From Candidatus Woesearchaeota archaeon (GTDB lineage: Archaea > Nanobdellota > Nanobdellia > Woesearchaeales > ARS49): a stretch of 64,000 nucleotides of DNA. The notes under the pieces were generated by a model, which worked only from the letters and a program-made list of their open reading frames with translations, was not told where the DNA came from and made no database searches. Shown piece by piece: positions 28,994 through 62,326 of this stretch. The stretch covers positions 18,829-82,828 of the forward strand of contig JAWAAW010000002.1 in the NCBI GenBank assembly GCA_038884975.1, read 5' to 3'. How positions within the stretch are numbered: position 1 is the stretch's first letter; each line of letters opens with the position of its first letter. The position numbers and the translations under genes are program-made.

Positions 28994-29015
28994 TGTTCTG
29001 AACAAAGTTGTGGTT

Positions 29016-32509: not shown

Positions 32510-32610
32510 AGCACACCTTCTTTTTTTTTGCGGCCAAGCGGTTGATTCTGATATATAATTATTTCTGATTGTTGTTTCTGAGCTGCTGAATGGGCTAAGA
32601 GCAAGCAGTC

Positions 32611-45166: not shown

Positions 45167-45787
45167 TTATTTTTGCCATCTAAGATATGCGACAGGGCTT
45201 GCTGCAAGTATGCCGTAATCAGGGTTTGCAAGTATGAATAATGCTCCAAAGTCTGTTCCTGCTGCTTGCCCTGCTATGTATTCGCCGGGCGAGTAGCCTT
45301 TTGCAAAAATTATTTTTTTGTTTGAGTATATTAGTGGCACTATTTCGCAGTACAATGGGGCTCCTTTGATTTTGTATGAGTATGTGCAGAGTTGTGCCTG
45401 CAGGAATTTTGTTGGGTCGTTTGGATAATATCCTGCTATGCCTGAGAATGTGTGTATTCTGTCTTTTTTGAGGGTGAGATAGTTGTAAAAGTTCATTTCA
45501 GGAATTGCTATCCTGTCCACTTGGAATCCCAGTATTTTTGGAATAAGTGATTGTCGTGGGGGTAGTTTGTCCTTGTCATAGGTCATTTGCATTATTTTGA
45601 TGGAGTTCAGTGATGGATAATTTGTTGTGGGTGTGGTTTCAAACATTAATCCCATGTTGAATGGTTCGTAAACGTAAACAGGTTCTGTTGTTTTTCCTGT
45701 TATGTTGTTTGCGTAAAAAAGCATGAAAAGCAGTGCTGTAATGCTTACAATTCCGAGCATTATTATTTCCCATTTATCCATGCTCAA
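45167..45787 (-). CDS. Operon gene 8: N-terminally anchored protein, unknown family
   Basis: 206 aa; TM IIMLGIVSITALLFMLF; start overlaps the stop of gene 7 by 14 nt. Confidence 0.55.
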   Translation of the reverse strand: MSMDKWEIIMLGIVSITALLFMLFYANNITGKTTEPVYVYEPFNMGLMFETTPTTNYPSLNSIKIMQMTYDKDKLPPRQSLIPKILGFQVDRIAIPEMNFYNYLTLKKDRIHTFSGIAGYYPNDPTKFLQAQLCTYSYKIKGAPLYCEIVPLIYSNKKIIFAKGYSPGEYIAGQAAGTDFGALFILANPDYGILAASPVAYLRWQK

Positions 45788-46601
45788 TCACCCCGTGTAC
45801 TGCTGTCACCCAGAGGACTCTTGTCCACGCAAGTGCTGGCAGTGAAAAGAGTATTCCAAAAACAAGAGGCAGGTAAGGGTTGGTTTTCATCAGCAATGAA
45901 GGGGTTAGTATTGCAATTAGTGTGATTATTGTGCTGAGCAAATGAACTGGCAGGAGTTGTTTCCATTGCTTTGTGCCGATTATGAATGTCTGGGTGAATA
46001 CTTTGTGAGGCACAAGCGCGTATGAGACATAAACAAAATATGTGAGCGCCCAAAAAAGCAGCATTGTGATTATGTTTGCCATCTTGATTCCTATTAATGG
46101 GAAGACTGTTGTTGTTGCATAATCAAGCAGGTTGAGCGAGATTACTGTGATTATTATCAGTCCAATGAACCATAATGTTGTTATTCCTGCAAAATTTAGG
46201 ACAAACCATCCTGAATGCTGCTTTTTTTCAGCAACATTGTGGGCAATAAACCATAGTATTCCCTTGCATACGAGCCACGCAAGCAATGCTCCAAGCACAA
46301 ACAAGCCGATGTACTTGAGCAGTTGGTTGTATTCTGTCATGAATTCTGGCGAGTTTAGTAGTGTCATGTCTGTCACGTTTTCTGTTTCTGCAATTATTTT
46401 TGCTTGTTCTCCAATCATTGTTGTGAGCCTTACTGCATGCTCGCTTGCCTTGCTAAAAACCTCGTAGTGGAGCTGTGTGAGTGCTATCACAAAGATCAAG
46501 TCAACAAGAACAGCAAAAAGGATGAGTTTCTTGTTGCTAATAAATGAGTGCCAGGATTTTGTTATTGTGGAAAATGCTGGAGTGGTCATGTTATTCTGCA
46601 A
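45774..46601 (-). CDS. Operon gene 7: polytopic membrane protein (family shared with 13614-14429 and 54307-55191)
   Basis: 275 aa; see the alignment blocks under 13614-14429; start overlaps the stop of gene 6 by 11 nt. Confidence 0.65.
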   Translation of the reverse strand: MQNNMTTPAFSTITKSWHSFISNKKLILFAVLVDLIFVIALTQLHYEVFSKASEHAVRLTTMIGEQAKIIAETENVTDMTLLNSPEFMTEYNQLLKYIGLFVLGALLAWLVCKGILWFIAHNVAEKKQHSGWFVLNFAGITTLWFIGLIIITVISLNLLDYATTTVFPLIGIKMANIITMLLFWALTYFVYVSYALVPHKVFTQTFIIGTKQWKQLLPVHLLSTIITLIAILTPSLLMKTNPYLPLVFGILFSLPALAWTRVLWVTAVHGVIEHG

Positions 46602-49600
46602 GCGTGAGATTTTCAGTTAAATGTGGGATTCTGATGGTTGTGTTTGGTTCTGTGGCTTGATCTTCTTTTGCTCCAAGCGCGGTTAGCGCAGCTTGTTTTT
46701 TGTCTTTAAGAGTTTCAAGTGTCTTTTCTGCATTTTTTAAGGCGGTTTCTATTTCGCGAGGGATGTTGCCCGGAAGTGTTGATTCAAGCTTTTTTGCAGA
46801 TTCTTCAAACTGGTTTGCGGCAGTGGTCAGTGCGTTCATTATTTGCAGTGCCCGGACTTGTTCTTTGAGTCCTTCTTCCTTTATGCTTGTGGTGACCTTG
46901 ACGAGTGCAATTTGTGCATTGCGCTCGTTTTGTGCAAGTTTTTTGAGGAATTGGATTATTTCTGTTGCATTGGTCTTGTTTAATTTATTGATTTCATTAG
47001 TTGCGTTTTCTTCTTCATTTTTTAGATTTTTGAGTATTTCGATCAGTGTTTGTGCTGCTGCTTCAAATTCCTTTGGTGCTGTTGCTTCTGTTGTTTGCAG
47101 TGCTGATTTTGGTGCGCACTGCACTTGGAAAGTGATTGTTTTTTGTTGTGGTTCTCCTGTTTCTGGGTCTGTGCTTATTTGTTCTGATGGGTTGCCTTGC
47201 CTGTCTGCGTCATAAAGCGTGAAGTATGCCTTCCACGTGATTGGCGTGTTGGGGTCGCATCCCTTCTGTCCTGCCACTTTTGTCGGGTCGTAAATTGCGA
47301 GTATTTGTAGTTTGTCTGTGCCGCTGAATACTGCCTTGTCAAACTCAAGCATTACGTTTACTTCTTGTTTTGTTGCGGTTCCTGGGATTGTGAATGTGAT
47401 GCGGTTGGATGGTGTGTCTGGTGATTGTTGTCCTGTTGCAATCACTTGTGTTGTAGAATCAAGCCAGCCTGTGCGGTCATCGCGCTTTAGCTTGTCTAGT
47501 GCTGCAGGGTTGACTTGCCTGACTTCGTACTTTGCATCTCCAGGACTTTTTCCGTAATCAATGAAGTTTATTACGAATCCGTATTTCGTGGTTGCTGGAG
47601 TGTTTCCTTCCTTGACGGTTAGAGTGGTGACGAATTTCTTGAGCGAGATTATAGGCCATAATTCCTGCAACACCCCTCCTGTTGTTGGTCCAAGGGCGCT
47701 GTGCCGCTTGATTGTGTCCTCGTTGAGCACGAAAGTGCCTAATGGCGTGTCGTCGATTTCCATCGGCACCATTAGCCGGTAATTGCCGTTTGTTGTTAGT
47801 GCGTAATTAATGCTTGTGGCGTCGTTCGTGGTTTGCAATAATTTTGTCGTGCCGTCAGGCATCAAGGCATCAACAACATTGCCTGCTGAGTCTCTTATTT
47901 CGTAGGTTAGGAATTTTCTTGCCTGGTTCTGGAATCTTCTTTCTTCTGGGAATACTTGTTTGATTTCAAGGCTGAAGTTGAGCTTGTCTCCAAGAGCGAA
48001 TGCTTTTTGTTTTTCAGGATACGTTTCTTTTGCTGAGATTATTCTTATTCCGCTTTCCTGCTCCCCAAACATACACCTGAATTTCCCTGAGAATGCGTCA
48101 AGCGCGCAGAATGCTGGTGCTGCTCCTCCCACTTCGCGTATTGAGCATTCTGCCTTGTCAGTGCGGACTTGTCTTGTTACTTTGTCTTCCCATTCCCATT
48201 CAAGTATTGCAGTGTCATACCTGTATCCCGCAAGGTCATAGGAATTTTGCGGGCTTACGACGAATGGTGCGTCAAAGTTCACGAGGTCAAACTTTCTTGC
48301 AAGTCCGTTGCCAAGCTCTGGCGCGCTTACAGTAAGTATTTCTTCTTTTGTTGTGCAGTCGCACTTTCCGTCAGGATATTGTCTTGGGTCGCAGTTAAAT
48401 CCTGAACTGCACTTGAGTTTGAGCCTGTACCTGACGTCTGCTCCTGCAATTAGTCCTCCTGCTATCCTGTAAGCCCAGGTGGTGATTCCGCTTGGTGTGG
48501 TTGTTGGGTCGTAGCTGATGAATGTTCTTTCGCAGGTTGTGAGGGCGCCTTCTGTGTCAACAGGTATTTCTTCAACTTGTTGTTGGAACAGTCCTTGTAT
48601 GTTAAGGTCCCATGTTCCTGTGAATGCCCATATGCAGATTGCGTGAACGAGTTTTCTTTCGCTGAACAAGGACTTGTACAATGATGTTTCTCCGTAGCGC
48701 TGGTTTATGCTTCTGCTTACTTCTGTTCCTGCGCCAGTGAGTGCTCCGAGGACGTTTCCGAAGCCGCCTGCTGCGGGTCTTGCACCAATTCCTGGAGCGT
48801 TGAATTTTTGTGTTATGCACGTGATTGCTTCAAATAGGAGGTCGCAGATTGTGCTTGAGAGTTTTGCTGCGCAGAAGCCAGCACTTCCTTCTCCTGTCAG
48901 TAATATCTTGCTGAAGCATCCGTGGAGTGCTCCGAGGACTGTGCGCCACATTTGTAGGTAGCTCGTGACTGCTGGCAGGCAGACGCATTCAATGCTTCTC
49001 AATAATCCTGAGTAGGGTCTTACGATGTATTGTTGGTCTGGCATTCCGACAATGTCATTGACTTTTTCCCATGCTCTTCTTAGGTTGCCTTTGTCGCAGG
49101 GTTCTATCTTGTAGCCGGATTGTGTTGGCTTGCAGAGTTCTTTTTCAAGGCAGGCAATTTGTTGTTCTTCTGTCATTCTTTCTGGTGTTTTGCCTTTTTC
49201 TGTCCTTGTTTGTGGTGTTTGTCCAAAGCAGTGTGTGACTTTTGTGTCAAGGGCTGCTGTGAGTCCTTCGCTAAGCCTTAATTGGTTTGCTTTGTCTATT
49301 CCTGCTTCTTCATTTGTCATTTTTTGGAATTGGGGTGTCTTTACTGCATAGCCGAGGTAGACCTCGTATCCTGTTGCTGTTCCGCCTCCGCCGAGGAATG
49401 GTATTGCTGGCGCCCTGAGGGTTGTGCGTCCTGCTTCAAATCCTCTTGGAATCACAAAGAGGTATGCTGCGTTTGCGTCTGCTCCTGGTCTTGCCGGGCG
49501 GGGTCCTACCCATTCTGCTTCAAGGCTTACGACTTGTGCTGTTGGTTCTCCTGTCTTGCTTTCGCAGAATCCTGCAACTGCGTTCCAGAGTGTGTTGCAC

Positions 49601-52362
49601 TTGAGCGTGGCGAGGTCTGGGTCATTTGCTTGCTGTGCTGCAAGGCACGTGCTTTGTTTGAGTTCGTCAAAGGTGTCAAGGCTTTCGCCAAGCAGTGTTC
49701 CAGGTCCGCACGCGCTGCTCCATTCCTTCTGGTATTGTATTCCGCAGCAGTTGGGGTGGGCTGGGTGTAATGTTTTTTTGCAGTCTTCTTTTGTTGGCCC
49801 GTTAGGGAATGTTGTTGGAGGGCTTGTTCCTTTTGCAATGTTGAATAGTTGTTTGATGCCGAGCTTGGCTTCGCTTTGCCCGCTTACCCTTGCAAGATAA
49901 TTCTCGGAAGATTCTTCTGCTGCAGGTTCAAGCCCGGTTTCTGGGCTTTCTCTTGGAGCAGGAACCCCTGAATATGTTGGCGTTATGTAGTTGTAGTCTT
50001 TGTACGTGAATGCGCAGTCATTTCCTGCATAGAGTTTGTTGTTTATTGCCCATTTTTGGAAGTGTTGTGGGTCGTTCTTTTGCACTTGTGCGCTTATGTC
50101 TTCGAGTGGTTCTGCATTGCCTGTGTTGTCTTTGATGTATGTTGAGAATGTTGGCGCGCTTGGGCATCCAACCCTGTCGCACAATGCGTGCATGACGTTT
50201 GTTTCAAACTTCTTCCTTGACTCTATCTTTTTTTGGCATATCATGCATTTTTGTTGTTGTGTTGGTTTGTCTTTGTATGCTGCTTCGCAGAGTCCTGCTT
50301 CTGCTACTGCCTTGTTCCACCCTCCTGCTCCTGAGAATGCGTCCATTATTGCGCTTCCTTCGCAGGACATCTTTTCAGAGAACCAATTGAACATTAGCCA
50401 TACGTTGCTTGCAAGGCAGCCGTAAAGCACGTATTCGCCAATTGTTGTTATTGGCTTCAATACCTTGTCAATTATGCTTATTGCCTTGTCAATAACTTCC
50501 ACTGCTGTTTTTAGGAGTCCTTTTGGTATTATGTCGTTTGGTATTGTTTGGTCTATTGCAATCTCGATTGGAATGCATACTTTTTGCATTCTTGGTTCTA
50601 TTTTTGGTGTGACTATTGGCAGTCTTGGGTCTGTTGGCTTGTATTGTATTATTTCTTGGAAGTTGATTTCCATTTGCAGGAATAGTTTGACGCACCCTGT
50701 CCCGGGCACAAGGCATTCTCCTCTTCTGTGGTCTGAGAGTGCTCTTTCTTTTTCGTTCGGTCCTGCTTCTGGCTTGTCAGGCAATGGGTTGACGTTCTCA
50801 AATTGTATTTGTATGTAGCCGACAGTGTCTTTCTTTCCTTTTGCTTTTGTGTACGCGTTTACTCGTATCCAGTCGTGGTCGTAGTCTTTTTCAGCTCCTT
50901 TTGAGAGCATTATTGGTCGCACGTCAATCCTGCCGAGCTTTACGTCCTGAGTGCCTGTGTAAGTTATGTTGAAGGGTATGCCTATTTGTTGTATTCCCTG
51001 AATCATTAATCGTGGCAGGAGTATGTTTGGCAGTGCTTCGCCAATGTTTGCAGTCCACCACGTTCCAAGGCCGCAGAGGAGGAAGTCAACATCGTAAGGA
51101 CCATATGTTGCCTTGTTTCCTGCAAGGTCAATTGCCTCTAGCTTTATCTTGTTTGCCCATCCCTCGCCTATTTCGACTGTTGTTTTTGTTGTTCCTTTCT
51201 TTATGCGCACGTCAGTCCGCAGCCGTGTCTTGATTGAGAATGAGCCGTCTGGGTCTGTTACTTTGTACTCGCTTGGTTTTTGTTCGTCATTGATGTATAC
51301 GAGGACGGTTCCTTGTTCGTCAAGCTTGCCTTTTATTGTGATGTCAGGAACGTATGATGGGCTTATCTTGTCAAGGTTTGTTTCAACAAGTTTTGGTGCC
51401 GTGTTGTCCTTTCTTATTGTTTGCTTAATGACTTCTTTGTTTCCTGCAGTGTCTTCAAAGATGATTTCAAGGTCATTGATTCCTTCTGTCAATGGCACCG
51501 TGATTGAGAATGGGCTTCCTGCGGTTATTGTTTGGTATGGTGTTTCGCAGGAAAGGTTTATTTCTGGCAATGCCGATGGTGTTATGTTTGTTCCGCCTGT
51601 TTTTGTTGCTGTCAAGATGTCTGCAGAAATGCCGGTGTTGCAGCTTGTGTCAATTCCTGAAATGCTGTAGCTGTATTGTGTTCCTGGCTTTAAGTTGGTG
51701 TCGCGGTATGTTGGCACTTGTGTTGTTGCGATTCTTCGTCTATCTCGTTCTACAAGGTATTCTTTTATGTCTGATGCAGTGCTTGGGTCCCATACGAGTT
51801 CAATCTCGTTTGGTTCTGCCTTGTTAACCCGGAGATTGGTGATGATGTCCGGTGGTGTTGTGTCTGTCTTGTGTATTACTCTCCATTTTATTGTGACTTT
51901 TTCGTTTACTTCGCCTGTTATTGTTATGCTGTTTTCTTTTGTTGAGTCAGGTATTTCATTGTCAAGCGTTACCCCTGGCGGCTTTCCGTCAAATAGCAAA
52001 GTGTATTCCTTTGTTGCAATATTGTCGCCTTCGTGCGCTTCAAGCTTGATTTTGTTTTCTCCTTCTTTTAATGGGAGGTTTGTTATTTTGAATGTGCCGT
52101 CAGTGCCTGTCGTTATTACTCTTTGTCTTGCCTCGTTCACGAAGGCGTGGATTGTTGCTTTTGCCTTTGTTCTTCCTTCTATTGTTATTGTGGGCTTGTG
52201 TGAGTATGCTGGGATGTTTGCTTCAATGTCAAGGGTTGTTAGTCCTGCTCCTCCTTCAACTACCCAGCCTGTAAGCATGTTCGCGCTGGCAACTGGCAAC
52301 GTGATGATGAGCATTGCCAGTGCCAGCGAGAGCAGCTTATTCAAATTCGGGTTTGAGCGCAT
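46591..52362 (-). CDS. Operon gene 6: giant secreted protein (1923 aa) with Ig-like repeats, one FN3 domain, a Cys-rich core and a C-terminal coiled coil
   Basis: Signal peptide LALAMLIITLPVASA; FN3-like PPDIITNLRV..IELVWDPS..YLVERD..YRDTNLKPGTQYSYSISGID (about nt 51622-51858); Ig-like units bounded by DGKPPGV / KDNTAPKL; many Cys in the central 900 aa; last ~180 aa heptad-like. Confidence 0.85.
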   Translation of the reverse strand: MRSNPNLNKLLSLALAMLIITLPVASANMLTGWVVEGGAGLTTLDIEANIPAYSHKPTITIEGRTKAKATIHAFVNEARQRVITTGTDGTFKITNLPLKEGENKIKLEAHEGDNIATKEYTLLFDGKPPGVTLDNEIPDSTKENSITITGEVNEKVTIKWRVIHKTDTTPPDIITNLRVNKAEPNEIELVWDPSTASDIKEYLVERDRRRIATTQVPTYRDTNLKPGTQYSYSISGIDTSCNTGISADILTATKTGGTNITPSALPEINLSCETPYQTITAGSPFSITVPLTEGINDLEIIFEDTAGNKEVIKQTIRKDNTAPKLVETNLDKISPSYVPDITIKGKLDEQGTVLVYINDEQKPSEYKVTDPDGSFSIKTRLRTDVRIKKGTTKTTVEIGEGWANKIKLEAIDLAGNKATYGPYDVDFLLCGLGTWWTANIGEALPNILLPRLMIQGIQQIGIPFNITYTGTQDVKLGRIDVRPIMLSKGAEKDYDHDWIRVNAYTKAKGKKDTVGYIQIQFENVNPLPDKPEAGPNEKERALSDHRRGECLVPGTGCVKLFLQMEINFQEIIQYKPTDPRLPIVTPKIEPRMQKVCIPIEIAIDQTIPNDIIPKGLLKTAVEVIDKAISIIDKVLKPITTIGEYVLYGCLASNVWLMFNWFSEKMSCEGSAIMDAFSGAGGWNKAVAEAGLCEAAYKDKPTQQQKCMICQKKIESRKKFETNVMHALCDRVGCPSAPTFSTYIKDNTGNAEPLEDISAQVQKNDPQHFQKWAINNKLYAGNDCAFTYKDYNYITPTYSGVPAPRESPETGLEPAAEESSENYLARVSGQSEAKLGIKQLFNIAKGTSPPTTFPNGPTKEDCKKTLHPAHPNCCGIQYQKEWSSACGPGTLLGESLDTFDELKQSTCLAAQQANDPDLATLKCNTLWNAVAGFCESKTGEPTAQVVSLEAEWVGPRPARPGADANAAYLFVIPRGFEAGRTTLRAPAIPFLGGGGTATGYEVYLGYAVKTPQFQKMTNEEAGIDKANQLRLSEGLTAALDTKVTHCFGQTPQTRTEKGKTPERMTEEQQIACLEKELCKPTQSGYKIEPCDKGNLRRAWEKVNDIVGMPDQQYIVRPYSGLLRSIECVCLPAVTSYLQMWRTVLGALHGCFSKILLTGEGSAGFCAAKLSSTICDLLFEAITCITQKFNAPGIGARPAAGGFGNVLGALTGAGTEVSRSINQRYGETSLYKSLFSERKLVHAICIWAFTGTWDLNIQGLFQQQVEEIPVDTEGALTTCERTFISYDPTTTPSGITTWAYRIAGGLIAGADVRYRLKLKCSSGFNCDPRQYPDGKCDCTTKEEILTVSAPELGNGLARKFDLVNFDAPFVVSPQNSYDLAGYRYDTAILEWEWEDKVTRQVRTDKAECSIREVGGAAPAFCALDAFSGKFRCMFGEQESGIRIISAKETYPEKQKAFALGDKLNFSLEIKQVFPEERRFQNQARKFLTYEIRDSAGNVVDALMPDGTTKLLQTTNDATSINYALTTNGNYRLMVPMEIDDTPLGTFVLNEDTIKRHSALGPTTGGVLQELWPIISLKKFVTTLTVKEGNTPATTKYGFVINFIDYGKSPGDAKYEVRQVNPAALDKLKRDDRTGWLDSTTQVIATGQQSPDTPSNRITFTIPGTATKQEVNVMLEFDKAVFSGTDKLQILAIYDPTKVAGQKGCDPNTPITWKAYFTLYDADRQGNPSEQISTDPETGEPQQKTITFQVQCAPKSALQTTEATAPKEFEAAAQTLIEILKNLKNEEENATNEINKLNKTNATEIIQFLKKLAQNERNAQIALVKVTTSIKEEGLKEQVRALQIMNALTTAANQFEESAKKLESTLPGNIPREIETALKNAEKTLETLKDKKQAALTALGAKEDQATEPNTTIRIPHLTENLTLAE

Positions 52363-54310
52363 CGCGATAGTCTCCCTCCAGTATGTATGACATCATGTTC
52401 ATTTTTTGTTCGTCAGTTACTGCTGTTGGCAGATGTTCAACGAGGTGGATTGTCATTGTTGGCTTGCCTGCTATTTCTGTGTAGTTTATCCTGAGTGTTT
52501 GGGCGTTGTAGCCTCCTATCTGGTTGTCGCGCAGGAATAGCATTGCGTCAATGTCGTAATAAGCATCGTCAAGCACTAATTGTAGTGTTTCGTTGGTTGT
52601 TGGGAAGCCGATGTATTGGTCGAATGTCTTGTTTACAAGGCTTACTGCCAGCGAAACCCTTTCGTTTGGTTTTAGCGGTCTTGGGGTTCCCCAGGTCTTT
52701 GTTTGTCCGTGATAGGGGTGAACGACAAACTTTAGTTGCATGTCCTGCAATTGTTTCATTTCAATGTCAAGCCTGTCGCTTGTCATTTGTTTGGTTGTTG
52801 TTAGGTATCCTTCTTTTGATGCAGTGATGAATGGGTTTGTGCAGCTTCTTGGCAAGTAAGTGAGGAGTTTGTATGTTCCTCCTTCTGCTGTTGTTTTTCC
52901 GAGCTCGCATTCTTGGTCAAAGCATTTGTAAGTGATTTGTACGTCTGGCATTTCCATAAGCACGCCTGTTCCTTCCAGTGGGCCTAATGCGCGTATGTCC
53001 ACTGGCTTGTCTCCGAGTGTTGTGCAGAATTCAGGCGCTCCAAAGTCAATGCTCTGGAACCTCCTTAAGCCAAAAGCAACACGTTCTGGGGAATTGTGGT
53101 TGATTAGGACTGGGAATGCGAACTGGAACACGAATCCTTTTCCTTCAAATGCCTTGTCGTCCCTTATTGATGCCTTGACGTAATAAATTATGTCGTAAGT
53201 GAAGTGCCATTGGTTGATGCAGAGGAAGCGGAGGAATTTGCCAGCCCCTTTTCCTGCATTTGACTTTAGTATTGAGCCGTCATTTGGTTGTGCATTCAGT
53301 TGCATTCCCCATGCGGGTTGGTATTCAAAACCAATCTTTAGGTCTGTTGGTTTTATTCCTATGTCATAGAACAGGTTGAAGTACTGGTATGCGTCGTCAG
53401 GCGCTGTGGTTTTTGGCGGTTTCATGTCCTTGCCGGCTTCAAGTTCTTTGGTCATTCTTTGGTATTCCTTGTGTAGTGTTTCGTAAGTGCTTTTGCTTTC
53501 TGTGAATGGGAAAAAGTCAGTGTTCTTGATGCGTATTGTGGGAATGTAGTAGTATAGGAGCCTTTCAAGCCTCGCTTGCACTTCTGGAAGCCTCCATCTC
53601 TTTGTGCCGCATTCTATTGTGAAGCCGTCCAGCGGGATTTCATTGTCTGTTGCCATAAGGTCTATTGTTGCGTTCTCAAAATAAGCGAATTCATTCTCTT
53701 TTGACATTGTTGCGTTTGCGAGCTCCCATATTTTCTTAAGGCGCACGGGCATCTTGACAACGAAGTCAGGCACTCTTGTCCTTCTGTCCCCTGACGTGAG
53801 CAATAACGGCCAGTTTATTCTCAGTATGACTTCGTTGTCTGCAATGATTGTCCTCGTGCTGATGTTTCCTTCCTCTGTTATGATGAATCTTTCCTTGAAT
53901 GGCTCAAATTCGCCAGCACATTCCTTGAGGCGTTCGTTTACGTATCTTGAGATTTCTCGTTCCATATAAGTTGGGCTTGGAGTTCTGTCCTCTCCCTCAT
54001 AATACCACAATGGCACCTTGAAGTAATTAGCCGAGTCTATTGGTATGTGTGCTGTTGGTGTGCGCTCAATTATTCCTGGAAGGTTGATGAATCCTCCTTG
54101 CAATCCCAGTATGCCAAGTCCTTCCCTTGCAATGTCATTGGCGCAGGTCTGGACAAATTCGTACACTGGCCTGATGTCTTCTGGTACAATCACTTCCTCT
54201 TCTATTGGTTTTATGACTTGCCTTGTTGTGAGATAAGTGGCTATTGCAATGCTGACTAACAGGATTAGGCCGATGATTATGAAGATGGTTATTTGCCCCT
54301 TTTTTGTCAT
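52337..54310 (-). CDS. Operon gene 5: 657-aa protein with class III (pilin-type) signal MTKKGQITIFIIIGLILLV; paralog of gene 1
   Basis: N-terminus matches the [KR]G|Q + hydrophobic pattern of archaeal prepilin-peptidase substrates; aligns with 59725-61905 (VPLWYYEG / VPYWWHMS; INWPL / LEYPL). Confidence 0.8.
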   Translation of the reverse strand: MTKKGQITIFIIIGLILLVSIAIATYLTTRQVIKPIEEEVIVPEDIRPVYEFVQTCANDIAREGLGILGLQGGFINLPGIIERTPTAHIPIDSANYFKVPLWYYEGEDRTPSPTYMEREISRYVNERLKECAGEFEPFKERFIITEEGNISTRTIIADNEVILRINWPLLLTSGDRRTRVPDFVVKMPVRLKKIWELANATMSKENEFAYFENATIDLMATDNEIPLDGFTIECGTKRWRLPEVQARLERLLYYYIPTIRIKNTDFFPFTESKSTYETLHKEYQRMTKELEAGKDMKPPKTTAPDDAYQYFNLFYDIGIKPTDLKIGFEYQPAWGMQLNAQPNDGSILKSNAGKGAGKFLRFLCINQWHFTYDIIYYVKASIRDDKAFEGKGFVFQFAFPVLINHNSPERVAFGLRRFQSIDFGAPEFCTTLGDKPVDIRALGPLEGTGVLMEMPDVQITYKCFDQECELGKTTAEGGTYKLLTYLPRSCTNPFITASKEGYLTTTKQMTSDRLDIEMKQLQDMQLKFVVHPYHGQTKTWGTPRPLKPNERVSLAVSLVNKTFDQYIGFPTTNETLQLVLDDAYYDIDAMLFLRDNQIGGYNAQTLRINYTEIAGKPTMTIHLVEHLPTAVTDEQKMNMMSYILEGDYRDALKPEFE

Positions 54311-55191
54311 AGTATTCTCCTGAGTGTGTTTCTCATATATATTCTATACCATGCCATGAATGCAAAAAGCAGGACGAAATACATCATCATTTGCATCTTT
54401 CCTTGCGCAATACTTAGTATCCAGCTCAATAATACGTAAATGATAAAAATGTAGCAGTATGGGTGCGCGAACCTTGCTAGTGAACCCACTCCTGTGCCGA
54501 ATGTGTCCTTTAAAGCAGCCCCGAATGCATTGTTTTTTGTGAAGGAATGATGCAGGATTGTTGTGAGATGGACATATAGCAGGACTGTTATTGCAAACAA
54601 CGCTATTATTGCAAGGGGTGATTTCATTGTGACAAGGAAGAATCCTGTGATAAAGACCCAGATTGTGCACCAGATTAGGTTTAGTAGTCCAAGGCGCAGA
54701 AAGAATTGAGTTCTGGTTCGTTTTGTGAGCAAAACATTCCATATCATTCCACGCGAAACAGAATAAGCAATCAATGCAAGCAGATAAAACACGACAAGTG
54801 CAATTATTGCGTTTATGAAAAACCTTTGCAAGATGTCATTGTATGCAGAAAGCATTGCAGGATTTAGCGAGGTTCCAATCGGCAGTGTTCTGAGTTTTTC
54901 AATGCTGTTCTTTAGGAGGGCATAAAGCCCAAAAAATAATAATGCGCATACAACCCAACACATCGCATCAATGAACATTATCCAAGCGTATTCTTTGTTA
55001 AGCTTGAATGAATTGATGAATTCCTTGAATTCTTCTTTTGCTGATTTGTTCGGTGTGAGCAGTAGGATTAGTCCTGGAATTGCAATAATTAGTGCCTCCA
55101 ATGATTGTTGCATTATGTACGTGAGCACTGCGATTATGATTAGTGCGATGCCGATGATTCGTGGTGTTGTGATTAGTTGCTTTATTTTCAT
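54307..55191 (-). CDS. Operon gene 4: polytopic membrane protein (same family as genes at 45774 and 13614)
   Basis: Track ORF to 55311; ATG 55191 (MKIKQLITTPRIIGIALIII) forms an ATGA overlap with the gene 3 stop; FFLRLGLLNLIW parallels FARINLLW / FAGITTLW. Confidence 0.7.
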   Translation of the reverse strand: MKIKQLITTPRIIGIALIIIAVLTYIMQQSLEALIIAIPGLILLLTPNKSAKEEFKEFINSFKLNKEYAWIMFIDAMCWVVCALLFFGLYALLKNSIEKLRTLPIGTSLNPAMLSAYNDILQRFFINAIIALVVFYLLALIAYSVSRGMIWNVLLTKRTRTQFFLRLGLLNLIWCTIWVFITGFFLVTMKSPLAIIALFAITVLLYVHLTTILHHSFTKNNAFGAALKDTFGTGVGSLARFAHPYCYIFIIYVLLSWILSIAQGKMQMMMYFVLLFAFMAWYRIYMRNTLRRIL

Positions 55192-56564
55192 ACGTTTGCT
55201 CCTGGGGGCGGTGTTCCTGGTGTTGCTGGCGCTCCTGGTCCTTCTGTTGTTGGTGTTGTTACTGCGTAAGGTGCTGTTGGTCCGCCAGCGTATTGGGCTA
55301 TTCCGTTGCATATTTTGTGAACGCGCTTGCCCCCGAAGCTTGTGATTTCAGGGTCAAAAACAAGGCATACTTCGCTATAGTCTGTTGAGGAAACCTTGTA
55401 TAATGCTGATGCTCCTATTGCGCTTGTTGTTCCGCCTTTTGCAAGTGTTTGTGGTGTGCTCCACCATGATGCTGTTCTTTCTCCTCCAAACACGACGTTA
55501 TAAGTCATTTCCTTTTCTTCGTCCGGGTTTGTGAGGGCAAAAGTGACTGTGTATCCCCAGTACGTTGCGTTTGGCGTGATGATTGGGAGTGAGCGTTGTG
55601 CTTCTATGTGTGCTGTTGCTTTTGGCGCTCCTCCTGCTGGTGGCGTGTATAGTATGCCGTCGCGCGATGGGGTTATGTCCGTGTATCTGCCGCATATTTG
55701 TGATGCCCAGCATTCTGTTCCTCCTATGTGTAGGGTGTCGCACATTATTTCATTCACTTTGTCCTTCCATTTTTTTAGGAATTCCTTGTCAAAAATGAGT
55801 GAGGACCATCCTGCAAGACCGTAGAATTGTTGGAAGTATTTGATTGCAGTGCCTAATTGGAAGCCTTCTTTTTTCGCAAGATTCTGGGCTTCTTGCCTGT
55901 AATACTGTAGTTCTTCTTCTGCTCCGGGATATTCCTTCAAGACTTGTTCTAATGTTAGCTTTCTCCCCTGTTCATCGTAGTATGTCAATCCATCTGGCTC
56001 ATTTACATCATACCCGATTGTGATTTTTCCTGCAATTTTTCCAAGCTCGCTAATGCCTTTTGGAAGAACTGGCTTTGTTGGCGCTTTGGGAGTTTCTTGT
56101 TGTTGTTCTAACGTCACTCTTTCTTCTGGGAGGGTTGTTGTTGGAGAAGATTCCATTTGGCGTATTATATGTTCAGTTTCTGGATTTACTTTTAATGCGC
56201 TCATTTCTTCTTGTGTTAGTTCGCGTTTATCACCCTTTTCTGTAGTATAAAATTTGTATTCATTTTCAGCATCAGGTTCATATGTTATTGTGCTGATATC
56301 CACAGGTGGGAGAGGGAGTATTGGTTGTATTGTTCCTGCTTCGATTTGTTCGTATGTTGTTTTGAGTAGGGGGTGTAGGTTGTTGATTTCTTCTTGTGTG
56401 AGGTATCTTCCTGTTTGTCCTGGTGGTTGGTAATATGCTCGCATTTGCCCTGTGCTGGGATCTTTGTACATTGACAAGTATGCTTCGTTTATTTGTGTGT
56501 ATGCAAATGCTGCGCTTGAACTAATTATGATTGCAATGATTAGTGTTATTATTTGTTTTTTCAT
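55188..56564 (-). CDS. Operon gene 3: secreted 458-aa protein, unknown family
   Basis: Signal peptide MKKQIITLIIAIIISSSAAFA; Cys-containing C-terminal beta-rich half; Pro/Gly-rich end. Confidence 0.75.
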   Translation of the reverse strand: MKKQIITLIIAIIISSSAAFAYTQINEAYLSMYKDPSTGQMRAYYQPPGQTGRYLTQEEINNLHPLLKTTYEQIEAGTIQPILPLPPVDISTITYEPDAENEYKFYTTEKGDKRELTQEEMSALKVNPETEHIIRQMESSPTTTLPEERVTLEQQQETPKAPTKPVLPKGISELGKIAGKITIGYDVNEPDGLTYYDEQGRKLTLEQVLKEYPGAEEELQYYRQEAQNLAKKEGFQLGTAIKYFQQFYGLAGWSSLIFDKEFLKKWKDKVNEIMCDTLHIGGTECWASQICGRYTDITPSRDGILYTPPAGGAPKATAHIEAQRSLPIITPNATYWGYTVTFALTNPDEEKEMTYNVVFGGERTASWWSTPQTLAKGGTTSAIGASALYKVSSTDYSEVCLVFDPEITSFGGKRVHKICNGIAQYAGGPTAPYAVTTPTTEGPGAPATPGTPPPGANV

Positions 56565-59500
56565 GTTGTTCTTTGTGCTTTGTAATTCTCAAATGTGTCT
56601 GTGAATTGGTCGCACCATTGGTTGCTTATTGAGCCGAAGTCGGTGAGGCTCTTGAAGTTCTTGATGTAGTTGATTGTTTCGCCGAGCTGTGCTGCTATTG
56701 ATGTGCCTGCGCAGACATAATACATTGTTCCGCCTGCCTCGCACGCGCTTGCGCAGGCTATTGCGAGTGCTGCTGATACGAGTGCGATTGGGTTAGAGAA
56801 TGCCTGTTGTATCAAATTGAGATAATAGCTCACGATTGGGGCAAATGGGATTATGTTGAATATTTCTCCAACCACAAACCTGCATTGCATGTAGTTTTTC
56901 TGGTCTTTGCACACGCTTGCAGGCATTCCTTGTTCTCTGACGTCTTCAAGCAGGCATAGTCCGTAACGGCATTCTATTTGTTTCCACTTGTCAAGGTTGT
57001 AAATTATTCCTGGAATGCATAATGGCGGGATTATTATGCTGTAAATCAGGCTGTCCTTTACGTTCAAGTACACGTTTGGGTTTTGTACTGCCGTGCCTTC
57101 TTTTGCGATGGCGCCGGCAAGTTGTTCTTTTGTCCATTTGTTTCCAAGGCTTGCCCAGTCATAATACCAGTTTGACATTCCTGCCTTTGCTTTTCCTGCT
57201 GTTTGTGCGCTCATGACGTCAAGCCTGATTTCGCCCATGAATCCTTCGTTGCTGAGGAAGTCAAAAAGTCCTGCCTGGCAGGTTGTGAAGTCGCAGAATT
57301 TCTTGAATGTTGTCAGCAGTCCTCCTTCTTTGTTGAAGTATGTGCGTGATTTTTCTGCTGACCTGCAGGACATTCTTCCTTCTTCTTTCATTGCTTCTGC
57401 CACTCCTTGCAGGCCCGGTATGTTGTAAAGTATGTTTCCAATCGTGTCTGATATTAGTGATATCATTGCGAGAAGGGAAATCACGTTCATTACTGCATTG
57501 AGTATTGTGCACAGCTTTTCAGCCGTTGACATGAATTTCTGCAGTTGCCTGATTATTTTCCACGCGCCTTCCACTTTGTCATTCACGTCCTCAACGTCGG
57601 AATCAATGTTGTTGTAAAGTTCTCCGAGTGGGAGGTTGTAGAATTGCAGGTTTATTGTGATGTTGTCGTGTTCAAGGTTTTGTGGAATGAATTTTCCGAT
57701 TCTGGTAAGCGTTTTCAATGGGCAGGTGAAGTTTAGGTTGTTGATTGTGTAGTCTGTTGCCACAAGGGTCATTACTATGTAGGGTTCTGTGCTTCCTGCA
57801 TAATTGTTTTCAATGCTGAACTCGCTTATGTAGTCTGTTTGTCCTGTGCATTCGCTTAGGTCAGCAGGTCCTTCTACTGTGAGCGGAAAAGCGTTAGTGT
57901 TCGGGCTTTCCATCTTAATCCTGCAATATACTGGGTGTTCAAAGACAGAGAGTGTTGTGCGGTCAAGCAGTTTTGGCGAGCACTCGGAGGTTATTGTCCA
58001 ATAGTTTGGTGCTGTTTCATTGCTTATTCCGAGGATGAATAATTCTGATGTTGTTATTTCTGCCTTGTTTCCTGCAACGTCTGCAAAACTGAATTTGAGG
58101 CGTGTTTCCTGCGGTCCTGAAACCCCGACGTCAATGCTGAACACGCATTTCTTGGTGAGGTTGCCTTCGCATCTTTCTGGCAGGGTTTCATTGCTTCCTC
58201 CAAGGTCTGAAAGGTCCGCAAGTGCTGTCTTGAATCCTGTTGCCTCAACAACGAACTCAAGTGTTTCGCCGAGTGATGTGTAGTTTGTTTTTACTCGTTG
58301 TTGTTCCCTGAATGCTGCTATCTCCACAAGTCGTGGGTTTTCAGGTGCGGTCTTGTCAAAAGTCACGTTCATTTGTAATGTTTTCGTGACTTGGTTGTTG
58401 AGGTTGTCCCTTGTTGTTGGAAGGAGTTTTACAGAATACCTTCCGCTGCTTACTGTTGGGATAACTTTCCAATAGCACTTCCAGTTTTCTGTTCCTGTTT
58501 TTTCGCACTTGCTTGCTTTTGTTTCAGCACCAAGTCCGAGTGAGTGAAGGTCGAAGTATGCGTTGCCTTTGCTCATTCCGCTGCCTGCTTCCTTGAATTC
58601 TGCAATGATTGTTCCTGTAACTCCCAGCACTGGCTTGCCGTCATCATCAACGAATTGGGTGCTTAACGATAATGGTTCAGGGGCAGTGTCGTCAATTCCT
58701 ATTGTGCAAGTGAGTGTTTTTGTGTCTTTGTTGCCCATAAGGTCTGTTGCATTCACTGTTACTTGGCACGTGCTTGGTGTTGTTATTGGGACTTTGCGCC
58801 AAATGAACCAGTCGTGGCTTTTGTCGTCTTTTGGTTTTTTGCCAAGCGTGGGATTGAGTTTTGAGAGGTCTGCATACACTGCTGTTGGATTGATATCAAT
58901 GTCTGGAATCTTAACGAAAACGTCAGCAAGAATGGTCTGTCCTGTTCTGGCATGCGTTATTTCAAAGCCTTCTTGGTCTCTGAGTTCAAGCGCTTCTGGC
59001 GTTGGCTTTCTTGAATCAATAAGTATGTCCTTGCACACGGGCAGGCTCTTGTGATTGAGGTAGTCTGTTGCGACAGCGCAGACTTTTATCCTTCCTGACT
59101 GTCCTTGTATTGTTGGAGTGAATGTGAAAGTGCTGTTTTTTGTGCAGGTGCCAATGCTTGTTGTTATTTGTCCTACTGTTGTTCCGTTTGCGCTTATGTT
59201 GATGAGCTTTATTCCAGAGCAGTCTGTTGTTTTTCCTGCCTCATAACCGTAGTCTTCTGCCTTGAGAACTACCGTGGTGGGTTTTGGGGCGTTGCTTGTG
59301 TTTGGGCTCAGGCTGAATGAAATAATCCTTGGTGGGAGAATGTCTACAGTCAGGGTTTTGTTAATTGAGGCAATTTCTTTGTTTTCTGTATCAAAGAGTT
59401 TTATTGCATAATTGTCTTTTCCGCCATAAATCAGGTCTGTTGTCTTGTAATTGCACTGGTACATCCCTCCTGCCTGTGAAGTGCAGGAGTCCATGAAGAA

Positions 59501-59728
59501 GTATGTGTTGTCATAATGCACTCTTGCTCTTTGCCTTGCAACCTCGTTTGTTGGGCTGCCTGCCATTTGTGCAAGCACTTGTATTGTGAGTTCGTCGTTT
59601 TCCCTTGCAAAACCTTCCACGTTGTCAGTGCCTGAGAATTTTTGGACAGTCATTTGTTGTGCGAACGCGACAGGCAGCATTATGATTAGCCAAATCATGA
59701 ACCATGCCGCGTATTCAAGCATTTTCAT
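56561..59728 (-). CDS. Operon gene 2: giant secreted protein (1055 aa) with Ig-like repeats and a Cys-rich, partly hydrophobic C-terminal region
   Basis: Signal peptide WLIIMLPVAFA; Ig-like units bounded by DILPPRI / DSRKPTPE / DDTAPEP / DKTAPENP; the C-terminal 350 aa hold hydrophobic stretches (LNAVMNVISLLAMISLI, IALVSAALAIACASAC) and many Cys. Confidence 0.85.
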   Translation of the reverse strand: MKMLEYAAWFMIWLIIMLPVAFAQQMTVQKFSGTDNVEGFARENDELTIQVLAQMAGSPTNEVARQRARVHYDNTYFFMDSCTSQAGGMYQCNYKTTDLIYGGKDNYAIKLFDTENKEIASINKTLTVDILPPRIISFSLSPNTSNAPKPTTVVLKAEDYGYEAGKTTDCSGIKLINISANGTTVGQITTSIGTCTKNSTFTFTPTIQGQSGRIKVCAVATDYLNHKSLPVCKDILIDSRKPTPEALELRDQEGFEITHARTGQTILADVFVKIPDIDINPTAVYADLSKLNPTLGKKPKDDKSHDWFIWRKVPITTPSTCQVTVNATDLMGNKDTKTLTCTIGIDDTAPEPLSLSTQFVDDDGKPVLGVTGTIIAEFKEAGSGMSKGNAYFDLHSLGLGAETKASKCEKTGTENWKCYWKVIPTVSSGRYSVKLLPTTRDNLNNQVTKTLQMNVTFDKTAPENPRLVEIAAFREQQRVKTNYTSLGETLEFVVEATGFKTALADLSDLGGSNETLPERCEGNLTKKCVFSIDVGVSGPQETRLKFSFADVAGNKAEITTSELFILGISNETAPNYWTITSECSPKLLDRTTLSVFEHPVYCRIKMESPNTNAFPLTVEGPADLSECTGQTDYISEFSIENNYAGSTEPYIVMTLVATDYTINNLNFTCPLKTLTRIGKFIPQNLEHDNITINLQFYNLPLGELYNNIDSDVEDVNDKVEGAWKIIRQLQKFMSTAEKLCTILNAVMNVISLLAMISLISDTIGNILYNIPGLQGVAEAMKEEGRMSCRSAEKSRTYFNKEGGLLTTFKKFCDFTTCQAGLFDFLSNEGFMGEIRLDVMSAQTAGKAKAGMSNWYYDWASLGNKWTKEQLAGAIAKEGTAVQNPNVYLNVKDSLIYSIIIPPLCIPGIIYNLDKWKQIECRYGLCLLEDVREQGMPASVCKDQKNYMQCRFVVGEIFNIIPFAPIVSYYLNLIQQAFSNPIALVSAALAIACASACEAGGTMYYVCAGTSIAAQLGETINYIKNFKSLTDFGSISNQWCDQFTDTFENYKAQRTT

Positions 59729-61905
59729 TCTGTAACTATCACCGGTGTGAGCAGGTCTTTGTATGGCTCTGAGTAGTCAAACAAGGCGCCCATTACTTCA
59801 AGGTCCTCAACCTTTCTTCTGCTTGCTGGTAAGACCTTGTCAAGGGCGTAATAAATGTATGTGAACTGGATTGTTTTTGCTGCTTGTAATTGTTCTTCTG
59901 TTATTGTCCAGTCATATTCTGCGTATCCTGACATTAGTGGTTTTTCCTTGTTGAAAACTATTTGTGTTGGAGGCACTAATACGCGTTTCGGGCTTCTTCC
60001 AGGTCCTCTGCTGAACTTGCGCTTTTCAGGAGGGATTACGAGGTCTGGGGAGGGGTATAGGAAGCTCTGAATGGTGACGTGATAATCGCCTGCGTACAAT
60101 GTTATGTTCCTTGAAATGTCTGAGGGTGGCCTTCCGCAGGGCACTGGTGCTTTTGATGCAGGCGCCCCGCAGACCTCTCCAAGGATTGTCATTGGTTCTT
60201 CAAACTCTTCTTGTTTGCGTTCAAGCATTATTATCGTGTTTTCTCGAGGTCCTTGGTTCCAGAGGTTGGTTGTTTCAAGCTCCCATCCTGCTGTGCCTGA
60301 TACGTTTCCTGTTTTCATCAGCATCCATTTCTTGACTATGAAGTTGACAGGATATCCTTTTTGGAGCACAAGGTCTATTGTGTTGTTGCTTGCATCAATT
60401 ATGTCAAGCGGCTTTGATGCTGGGGGATAGTCGGGGTGGTTTGCGCTGATTAGTCCGCCAATGCATCTCGGGAGTCTTGCAATGAGTTTTCCATCAGATG
60501 AAGTTCCTATGTGGCAGGTTTCTTGGCCGCATCTGTACAGGATTTCTGCGTTGTCAACAGGCATTCCTGCACTGTTCCTTATGTTTATCGTGATTTCTCC
60601 ACTGGTTTTTTGCAAGGGGTCGCATAATAATGAGCTTCTTTCAGCAATCTCTGCCACAGCCAATGGCGGCCCCATTGTTGCCAATGGCTCGTTGTTCCTC
60701 ATGTTGGCTTCAAGGAAGAAGCGCAGGGAGTATCCTTCTCCTTTGAACGCTTCAGGGTTTGTTATCTCAACGAGGACAGGATAGCTGATGCCGTATGCAA
60801 AATTGTATCTCCTGACTCCGAAGAGGAATCCAAGAGTGCTTGAGAATCCTTCTGGCTGGCATAACTGGCCGTTGCAGTTGAGGTCAAAGTATGGGTTCCA
60901 CCACGGCAGGTATGAGAACTTGACAGACAAGTCCTTGTGCGGCTCAAGGACTGGCACTGTGAATCCTCTGTTGTAGAGGATTTCGTACATCTTCTTGTCC
61001 TTTCCTGCAGGAGCCATCAAGTACTTGTAATTCTTGGTGTAAGTGACTTTCAGCATTGGTATGTAGCTTGTGAGCATTTGCATTACTTTTTCCTTGACGT
61101 CAAATTTTGTCCATATTGTTCCTGTGCCAAATCCGAATTCCATTTCTGACACTGGGGGCAAGGCATTGCTGTCTGCCCTTCCGAATATGTCTATTAGGTT
61201 TCTTGTTGCTCTTTCAAGGAATGTGTGTTCTGCTTCAAGGTTTGTTATGTTTGTGGCGAGCGAATAAATCTCGTAAAAGTTGACTGGAAGTTCTGTTGCG
61301 AATTCCTTTAGCTCAAAGCGTTCTGTTGCTTTTGTTGCCTCAAGAGGGTATTCGAGCCTGACAACGACATTTCGTTTTGTGATTTGGGTGGTTGGCTTTA
61401 TTTCTCCTGCAGGTGTTATCGTGAATGCCTGTTCCTTGAATTTCTCAAAATCGCCAATGCAGTTTGGAAGTTGTTTCTTGATGTAATTGTTCATCTGGTT
61501 TTCTATTTCTTCCAATGATGGGCGTTCGCTTTTGAATTCGCATTCTGACCGGCAATTGTTTTTTGAGCTCATGTGCCACCAGTAAGGCACTTTCAGCTTT
61601 GAGCCCGGCGCGAACTGGACTGCGCTTCCTTCTGTGGAATCAAAAGGGTTGTGTTTTTGTTGCGGGTCTATGTAGCCTCCTCTTTCGCCAATCATTTCCA
61701 GTCCCTGCCTTGCTGTTACGTAGAGGCATTGTGTGATGAATTCTTGTAATGGCTGGACTTCAACAGCGACCTCTGCAACCTTGATTTCCGCTGCTTCAAG
61801 GGGCCTGACTGCCTTTTGCTGTGTGAGGTAAATGAATACTCCAACAGCGACTAAGAGAACCAATCCTATGATTATGAAAATAGTCAGCTGCCCCTTTTTT
61901 GTCAT
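59725..61905 (-). CDS. Operon gene 1: ~726-aa protein with class III (pilin-type) signal MTKKGQLTIFIIIGLVLLV; paralog of gene 5
   Basis: Track ORF starts at TTG 61911; ATG 61905 gives an N-terminus nearly identical to gene 5. Confidence 0.8.
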   Translation of the reverse strand: MTKKGQLTIFIIIGLVLLVAVGVFIYLTQQKAVRPLEAAEIKVAEVAVEVQPLQEFITQCLYVTARQGLEMIGERGGYIDPQQKHNPFDSTEGSAVQFAPGSKLKVPYWWHMSSKNNCRSECEFKSERPSLEEIENQMNNYIKKQLPNCIGDFEKFKEQAFTITPAGEIKPTTQITKRNVVVRLEYPLEATKATERFELKEFATELPVNFYEIYSLATNITNLEAEHTFLERATRNLIDIFGRADSNALPPVSEMEFGFGTGTIWTKFDVKEKVMQMLTSYIPMLKVTYTKNYKYLMAPAGKDKKMYEILYNRGFTVPVLEPHKDLSVKFSYLPWWNPYFDLNCNGQLCQPEGFSSTLGFLFGVRRYNFAYGISYPVLVEITNPEAFKGEGYSLRFFLEANMRNNEPLATMGPPLAVAEIAERSSLLCDPLQKTSGEITINIRNSAGMPVDNAEILYRCGQETCHIGTSSDGKLIARLPRCIGGLISANHPDYPPASKPLDIIDASNNTIDLVLQKGYPVNFIVKKWMLMKTGNVSGTAGWELETTNLWNQGPRENTIIMLERKQEEFEEPMTILGEVCGAPASKAPVPCGRPPSDISRNITLYAGDYHVTIQSFLYPSPDLVIPPEKRKFSRGPGRSPKRVLVPPTQIVFNKEKPLMSGYAEYDWTITEEQLQAAKTIQFTYIYYALDKVLPASRRKVEDLEVMGALFDYSEPYKDLLTPVIVTE

Positions 61906-62041
61906 GCTCAAACCCTTTTTAATCTTGTGCTCGAAAAACCGTTGTTGAGTATTTAAATTTAACTATATTATATGGACGGTGATTGTTACTGTTTTGGAAT
62001 GACGATAAATATTTATATATGCTTGCGGGCGGCTTGGTGGT

Positions 62042-62326
62042 ATGGTTGTTGGGGAACTGGTTGATTATTTGAAGGAGCATCTTGCTCTTGGTTATGACAT
62101 TCATGAGCTTAAGCTGCATTTGGTGCGTTACGGTCATTCTCCAAAGAATGTTGAGGAGGCGCTTGAGATTTTGAAGAGGGAAGCGTTGAATGAGCTTCCA
62201 CAGCCGCCTTTGCCGCCAACGAGTTCTGTTTCTGCTCACACGTGGCTTTTGATGCCTGCAATCCTTTTTGTGCTGTTGTTTTCTATTGGCGTGATTGTCT
62301 TTTTGTTGAGAAATACTGCGCTATAG
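62042..62326 (+). CDS. Small protein with C-terminal TM anchor
   Basis: 94 aa; helical N-domain, Pro-rich linker, TM WLLMPAILFVLLFSIGVIVFLL. Confidence 0.5.
   Translation: MVVGELVDYLKEHLALGYDIHELKLHLVRYGHSPKNVEEALEILKREALNELPQPPLPPTSSVSAHTWLLMPAILFVLLFSIGVIVFLLRNTAL

Follow-up and report, generated by a model that had tools for sequence, protein, structure and literature searches.

What might an uncultured archaeon build with eight overlapping genes that include two for giant, predicted exported proteins and that resemble no characterised system? The question is raised by a stretch of 64,000 nucleotides (the window) from a Candidatus Woesearchaeota archaeon (assembly GCA_038884975.1, contig JAWAAW010000002.1, positions 18,829 to 82,828 of the forward strand), where genes g1 to g8 follow one another on the minus strand. 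Few uncultured archaea are as widespread as the Woesearchaeota, and for the question of how they build their surfaces, and of whether and how they attach to partners, the cluster offers a concrete, near order-wide candidate set of proteins that are large, conserved, predicted to be exported and unannotated. Judged from sequence, it makes a good, though unproven, candidate for a Woesearchaeota surface or cell-contact apparatus. In the specific form that we favour, and to which we give an even chance of being correct, it would encode a Woesearchaeota-specific, multi-subunit, non-filament surface complex made from two anciently duplicated sets of parts, in which anchors with pilin-type signals hold giants carrying immunoglobulin (Ig)-like arrays.

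Genomic organization of the cluster

The minus-strand run of open reading frames (ORFs) from 45167 to 61905 comprises eight consecutive genes, with an overlap at each of the seven junctions, and is preceded by a short spacer:

59725-61905 (-), g1, 726 aa from an ATG at 61905 (the ORF list reaches a TTG at 61911)
56561-59728 (-), g2, 1055 aa
55188-56564 (-), g3, 458 aa
54307-55191 (-), g4, 294 aa counted from the ATG of the ATGA overlap
52337-54310 (-), g5, 657 aa
46591-52362 (-), g6, 1923 aa
45774-46601 (-), g7, 275 aa
45167-45787 (-), g8, 206 aa
61906-62041, 136-nt AT-rich spacer with TATA-like boxes, read from the sequence, between g1 and a divergent gene

Four junctions are ATGA overlaps and the other three are overlaps of 26, 11 and 14 nt, as read from the sequence. 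Because ATGA overlaps are also frequent in the rest of the window (for example at 2273-2276 and 6625-6628), a single one is ordinary; it is the succession of seven overlaps over 16.7 kb that gives a strong operon signal and points to g1-g8 forming an operon, whose promoter likely lies in the 61906-62041 spacer, as its TATA-like boxes suggest. An earlier sequence-only reading by a model had described this layout, and all eight ORFs, every junction coordinate, and the N-termini and g1/g5 segments that it quoted are present as described. An identical g1 protein is encoded on the 88.7-kb contig JAWABN010000003.1 of the Woesearchaeota metagenome-assembled genome (MAG) GCA_038884635.1, and the NCBI gene sizes for g1-g6 agree. 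Archaeal markers also lie in the window, namely aEF-2 (23676-25880) and aEF-1alpha (22321-23601), and the g1 relatives place the source, as the earlier reading supposed, among small-genome archaea, here of DPANN (Woesearchaeota).

Searches of the eight proteins against Pfam, NCBIfam and PHROGs return nothing for g1, g3, g4, g5, g7 and g8; g2 and g6 give only generic Ig-like, fn3 and Glucodextran_B matches, all of them N-terminal, the PHROGs match being of fn3 type and confined to g6. Searched singly against Pfam, 23 members of g4/g7 and 13 of g3 reveal no recurrent family, just scattered one-member chance matches, and family profiles of g1, g2, g3 and g4/g7 find nothing below E=0.03 among PDB sequences. 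No significant match places the proteins in a characterised system. The earlier statement that the eight genes hold no recognisable enzyme or ATPase agrees with all three databases, yet a transglutaminase-like gene comes next downstream. A virus or mobile-element structure was considered and rejected: IMG/VR viral contigs contain no g1 relative, and PHROGs offer only the fn3-type match.

Pilin-type signals in g1 and g5

Archaeal class III signals carry a basic residue at position -2, Gly or Ala at -1 and, in EppA-type substrates, Gln at +1. The N-termini of g1 (MTKKG/QLTIFIIIGL, the slash marking the predicted cut) and g5 (MTKKG/QITIFIIIGL) are a good match to such a prepilin-like signal, and the motif [KR][KR][GA]/Q[IVL]T[VIL]FIIIG stands at the N-terminus of 231 of the 259 g1/g5 family members, mostly with a leader of 3-8 residues. 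The two proteins are paralogs (27.7% identity over 553 residues, E=1.5e-36, BLASTP). When 105 g1-type and 57 g5-type sequences are aligned jointly, no more than 32 positions prove to be conserved across the two groups; Q6, T8, F10, I12 and G14 belong to them, the remainder being mainly Cys, Gly, Pro and aromatic residues without a catalytic-looking set. A plain membrane anchor would not need conservation of this degree.

An enzyme that may act on these signals is encoded elsewhere in the window:

29010-29879 (+), Peptidase_A24 (PF01478; type IV leader/prepilin peptidase), E=1.9e-14, 54.4 bits against a cut-off of 26.5

This gene, 16 kb from the operon, is the sole filament-related gene found in the window. 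It is a candidate trans-acting enzyme for cutting the g1/g5 signals and could equally serve archaellins; KKG/Q cleavage by the A24 peptidase provides a testable biochemical handle.

The AlphaFold2 (AF2) model of g1, built on a 114-sequence alignment, is confident (mean predicted local distance difference test score, pLDDT, 91.6) and displays in order a hydrophobic helix (3-37), a novel alpha/beta domain (~48-420) and, at ~437-690, three beta-sandwich domains. Foldseek comparison of the whole g1 model with PDB and BFVD gives, among the matches listed, only generic beta-sandwich ones with template-modelling scores (TM-scores) of 0.1-0.2, including the Bacillus TIE protein, SlaB, Gram-positive pilins and carboxypeptidase-regulatory-like domains. 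For SlaB (8qox_B), E is 1.7e-5, with TM-scores of 0.11/0.17 and a root-mean-square deviation of 26 A. A substrate-binding-protein fold was sought in g1 as well, with no Pfam match and with all 50 listed Foldseek matches being beta-sandwiches.

Do these signals, then, mark parts of a filament? In one alternative, the cluster encodes the tip or priming complex of a type IV filament, with g1/g5 as oversized minor pilins, g2/g6 as PilY1-like tip adhesins and the machinery encoded elsewhere. Large adhesin-like proteins rich in Ig domains are frequent, together with a PilY-like adhesin, in archaeal type IV filament loci (bioRxiv 10.64898/2026.04.22.720090), archaellins are expressed in Woesearchaeota, so filament machinery exists in the order, and both the conserved class III-like signal and the A24 peptidase would fit. 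The machinery itself is what the locus lacks: neither a secretion ATPase of the FlaI/PilB type nor a platform protein is found in the eight genes, the rest of the window or the contig flanks read (Pfam and NCBIfam for the ATPase in the eight genes), and, examined as possible platform proteins (FlaJ/PilC/TadC, T2SSF domain), g4/g7 together with 21 relatives have no consistent Pfam match and no PDB sequence match. In 165 related loci, taken with flanks of at most 10 kb per side and less at contig ends, a crude Walker-A scan detects only SRP54/FtsY. No small major pilin appears either, g1 and g5 being the only motif-bearing ORFs in the window, with no other in the 165 loci. Moreover, the modelled C-terminus of g2 (706-1055) is all-alpha rather than a PilY1-type beta-propeller, and Pfam and NCBIfam give no PilY match. 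We regard the filament-tip explanation as quite unlikely.

Giant Ig-array proteins g2 and g6

The giants encoded next to g1 and g5 share an overall plan. In g2, a Sec signal (AFA/QQ) is followed by about seven beta-sandwich domains with D-x-T/K-x-P linkers (residues 26-697) and a Cys-rich region predicted by AF2 to be all-alpha (706-1055); pLDDT is 75.7 overall, 85-90 in the beta part and 30-65 in the helical part. In g6, a Sec signal (ASA/N) precedes N-terminal Ig-like/fn3 domains (fn3, Glucodextran_B and Big_13 in Pfam), a Cys-rich centre with 42 Cys and a coiled-coil-like C-terminal tail. Foldseek of the whole g2 model against PDB finds generic Ig arrays (S-layer, that is surface-layer, proteins SbsB and Sap, alpha-2-macroglobulins, mastigoneme, GhpA) at TM-scores of 0.1-0.2.

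Profiles of 72-80 sequences align the two proteins collinearly (g2 1-1041 with g6 4-1279, Prob 97.4%, E=1.5e-11, hhalign), part of this signal stemming from the Ig domains; the similarity is absent in BLASTP, in a g2 hidden Markov model (HMM) search and in hhalign with thin alignments. When only the helical regions are compared, a single 67-residue Cys motif is common to both (Prob 83.8%, E=7.9e-6, hhalign), and a g6-only HMM matches the region of this motif in many g2 orthologs. In the window the motif lies at:

56876-57085 (-), Cys motif of g2, residues 882-951: SIIIPPLCIPGIIYNLDKWKQIECRYGLC
48838-49047 (-), Cys motif of g6, residues 1106-1175, homologous to that of g2: LLRSIECVCLPAVTSYLQMWRTVLGALHGC

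Averaged over each family, hydropathy downstream of the signal reaches a maximum of 1.73 in g2 (894-912, inside the Cys motif) and of 1.2 in g6. Neither protein appears to have a clear transmembrane (TM) helix after its signal peptide, that is, no convincing anchor.

The same hydrophobic motif can be read another way, as part of a membrane-engaging device for a cytoplasmic bridge or for lipid or nutrient uptake, in which the Cys-rich helical domains of g2/g6, positioned by the Ig arrays and g1/g5, would insert into or remodel a partner membrane. Conservation of the motif in both giants, with its hydropathy peak in g2, is consistent with such a role, as is the observation that DPANN symbionts form membrane contacts through proteins not yet identified (PMC11420986). 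Foldseek and the PDB profile search, however, reveal neither a shared fold nor sequence similarity with fusexins, pore formers or lipid-acting domains, the model of the helical domain is poor, and host attachment by Woesearchaeota itself is debated. As for fusexins, the class II fold of Fsx1/HAP2 is not among the 50 listed Foldseek PDB matches for g2, whose C-terminal part is poorly modelled. We judge the membrane-engaging device highly improbable. A Lipocone/Wnt-like reading of the Cys-rich helical domain, prompted by the literature, was dropped, with no supporting evidence.

A composite version joins this function to the anchors: a hitherto unrecognised kind of archaeal surface machine, free of a dedicated ATPase and specific to Woesearchaeota and close relatives, in which prepilin-processed anchors and six-TM partners deploy giants that engage the membrane of another cell through their conserved Cys-rich hydrophobic helical domains. 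We hold this to be very doubtful; if true, such a membrane-engaging surface machine would be the molecular basis of DPANN cell-cell contact or of a cytoplasmic bridge.

The smaller partners and the duplicated module

The remaining genes encode membrane proteins and additional pieces. Both g4 (pI, or isoelectric point, 9.9) and g7 are basic polytopic membrane proteins with about six hydrophobic segments. The iterated profiles of g6 and g4/g7 had absorbed paralogs, which made their E-values circular, and the comparisons were redone on disjoint sets; on 50 g4-type and 10 g7-type orthologs, hhalign relates g4 to g7 with Prob 98.7% and E=2.4e-16 over 229 columns, where BLASTP reaches only E=0.017. 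g3 has a Sec signal (AFA/Y), a middle part of variable sequence rich in Pro, Thr and Glu, and a conserved C-terminal domain with Cys residues (~245-425); in relatives it ranges from 351 to 2077 aa. g8 has a single N-terminal hydrophobic segment and is confined to closer relatives. Profile comparison finds no resemblance between g3 and g8, or of either to g2/g6, and g8 is likewise dissimilar to the short g3-like proteins and to the 187-aa proteins encoded after g6 in distant lineages.

The sequence-only reading saw here one module used twice. Pairwise comparison finds significant similarity for each of g1/g5, g2/g6 and g4/g7; the claim is solid for the first and last pairs and holds moderately for g2/g6, through the 67-residue motif and the collinear profiles. 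Orthologs are much closer to one another than paralogs are, and the duplication, as these comparisons indicate, is ancient and spans at least three part types.

Conservation and gene order

Full-length relatives of g1 number more than 150, with identities of 34-78%; all are 'hypothetical', and the named ones come from Woesearchaeota/Nanoarchaeota MAGs. At least 446 stretches of GTDB species-representative genomes encode a g1/g5 relative, and among 1.84 billion 50%-identity cluster representatives the g1 profile has 8,500 matches at E<=1e-3, including 1,521 at E<=1e-30. The order g1-g2-g3-g4-g5-g6 is kept in relatives with merely 34-36% g1 identity, which bears out the expectation that the gene order would recur in distant genomes. 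Across the 165 fetched loci, the gene directly after a g1-type gene is of g2 type in 74 of 92 cases, and the one directly after a g5-type gene is of g6 type in 35 of 38. By these relatives the cluster is near order-wide in Woesearchaeota and not peculiar to its source genome.

Variation occurs mainly around this core. Close relatives possess all eight genes plus the transglutaminase-like gene; in more distant ones g7/g8 are missing or different small proteins come after g6, and the number of modules per genome runs from one to three. Some lineages have a permuted order (giant, short g3-like, six-TM, pilin-signal) that still keeps four part types together; the short protein of these clusters (165-210 aa) matches the g3 C-terminal domain (Prob 74.5%, E=2.7e-5), and the recurring unit therefore has four part types. 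An apparent g1-g2 fusion in locus L017 (3-4976, 1657 aa) was rejected as an artefact of a run of N.

Two further patterns were observed in related loci. Small gene pairs encoding PIN-domain, nucleotidyltransferase/HEPN-like and winged-helix proteins are repeatedly inserted between the g2 and g3 homologs (L010, L015, L020, L022, L023, L025, L035, L058, L076, L079 and L080) and look toxin-antitoxin-like. Additionally, in a distant lineage (L118, L124, L136 and L157) the g6 homolog is followed by a 185-190-aa single-pass protein and a 665-820-aa protein with a Sec signal, after which enolase comes next in L118, L136 and L157.

In distant relatives the cluster is frequently found beside PTH2 and ribosomal protein S6e, and also NOG1. 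Might it then belong to the core envelope? As a scaffold of this kind, an S-layer-like wall, g2/g6 would form the canopy or lattice and g1/g5 the stalks of the ordinary Woesearchaeota cell wall. The breadth of the family, the conserved position beside housekeeping genes and the degree of g1 conservation, high for a surface protein, all suit this explanation. SlaB, SbsB and Sap do occur among the Foldseek matches, but as generic beta-sandwich hits with the low TM-scores given above. N-glycosylation sequons are not enriched, separately annotated S-layer genes are among the top transcripts of a Woesearchaeota metatranscriptome (PMC11606122), and module number varies between genomes. Furthermore, eight co-transcribed genes with two paralogous sets and six-TM partners are unlike the known S-layer loci of one or two genes. 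We consider the envelope scaffold unlikely.

A proposed mechanism

How would the favoured non-filament complex of anchors and giants work? Sec would export g2, g3 and g6, with cutting at A-x-A sites, whereas g1 and g5 would enter the membrane and the prepilin peptidase encoded 16 kb away would cleave them behind the Gly of KKG/Q. The hydrophobic N-terminal helix left on processed g1/g5 could serve as a membrane anchor or join a short helix bundle, placing the alpha/beta head and three beta-sandwiches outside as stalks that would hold the adjacent giant (g2 or g6). The six-segment g4/g7 may act as a membrane-embedded partner or assembly platform, and the long Ig-type arrays would reach outward for adhesion or cell-cell contact. 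Because no dedicated ATPase is involved, the structure would be static and anchored, not an extendable filament.

Several points weigh against this proposal. Cleavage of g1/g5 is predicted from the motif alone, and in the g1 model a low-confidence linker (residues 33-47) separates the hydrophobic helix from the helix that opens the globular domain, where canonical pilins have a continuous alpha-1 helix. The pairing of g1 with g2 is drawn solely from gene adjacency. Three segments of the window g2 reach Kyte-Doolittle values of 1.6-2.1, and the low-confidence model of its helical part leaves room for a membrane-embedded C-terminus. Finally, broad conservation and the housekeeping neighbours PTH2, S6e and NOG1 fit a core envelope component at least as well as a host-specific adhesin.

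The surface part of the earlier surface or host-contact interpretation gains from a pilin signal conserved across the family, an A24 gene in the window and Sec-signal giants with Ig-type arrays, while host contact as such stays conditional: the function of the complex may be adhesion or host contact, or it may be that of an envelope scaffold. An interaction role is favoured by the variable module number and the giant Ig arrays; the wide conservation and the housekeeping neighbours speak for a core role.

Neighbouring genes and other features of the window

Genes flanking the operon and other features of the window include:

62042-62326 (+), divergent gene, 94 aa, of a family (94-420 aa) found opposite g1 in 26 related loci
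62539-63198 (-), up2, 219-aa single-pass membrane protein, on the same strand upstream of g1 in 22 related loci
44105-44929 (-), transglutaminase-like (DUF553/Transglut_core), the next gene on the same strand, 237 nt downstream of g8
14422-15177 (+), LGT, bacterial-type prolipoprotein diacylglyceryl transferase (PF01790, E=2.8e-77)
21262-21363 (+), Rfam tRNA match, 102 nt, 39.7 bits, not called by ARAGORN
31859-33465 (-), two adjoining NosD/right-handed beta-helix proteins (PF05048, PF13229)

Members of the divergent-gene family share an N-terminal LVxYxKxxLxxGY followed by a TM segment; a minus-strand ORF at 61919-62239 was rejected as a gene, being the antisense shadow of 62042-62326. up2 may be an additional, ninth member of the cluster. 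The transglutaminase-like gene, which may be accessory to the cluster, stands after g8 only in the closest relatives (L085, L086, L090); more distant ones do not have it there. Elsewhere in the window, the Rfam match at 21262-21363 is probably an intron-containing tRNA. The bacterial-type LGT is a further observation in this archaeal genome, which fits reports of bacterial systems in DPANN (PMC8204110).

Comparison with known systems

Which known systems does the cluster most resemble? Searches of the literature found neither the cluster nor its duplicated-module structure or pilin-type signal described. Castelle et al. 2021 report unannotated families specific to Pacearchaeota/Woesearchaeota (Module 98) that are widespread and mostly membrane-bound or extracellular, listing families only (PMC8204110). 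The eight families probably belong among such lineage-specific families.

With archaeal type IV filaments the cluster has in common the class III-type signal on g1/g5, an A24 peptidase in the genome and Ig-rich secreted giants. It differs in that an ATPase, a platform protein and a small major pilin are absent from the cluster and from the surroundings of related loci, and in that the signal-bearing proteins span 650-730 aa with a low-confidence linker after the hydrophobic helix. The bacterial minor-pilin/PilY1 tip complex is alike in logic, with prepilin-signal proteins and a large Sec-exported non-pilin adhesin encoded together; here, in contrast, there is no PilY1 beta-propeller, no detected homology and no pilus machinery in the cluster.

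The two-component SlaA/SlaB S-layer of Sulfolobales offers an architectural likeness, a membrane-anchored beta-sandwich 'stalk' beside a large secreted beta-rich partner. The g1 anchor, however, is N-terminal and pilin-like, whereas that of SlaB is a C-terminal TM helix after a coiled coil, and the present system has eight genes, duplicated modules, no sequence similarity to SlaA/SlaB and TM-scores of 0.11-0.17.

The bindosome of Sulfolobales contains class III-signal proteins that are not filament subunits, a precedent for our reading of g1/g5, as the large Ig-rich adhesin-like proteins in archaeal type IV filament loci are for the giants. In both the bindosome and the cluster large globular non-filament proteins would be held at the surface by a prepilin-type signal and a hydrophobic N-terminus. 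Unlike the bindosome, g1/g5 show no substrate-binding-protein fold or Pfam match, the cluster has no ATP-binding cassette (ABC) transporter, and g1/g5 are paired with giant Ig-array and six-TM proteins. We would class the cluster with archaeal surface structures built on prepilin-signal proteins, and it would widen the archaeal use of prepilin-type signals to 650-730-aa non-filament proteins with giant partners and no filament motor nearby.

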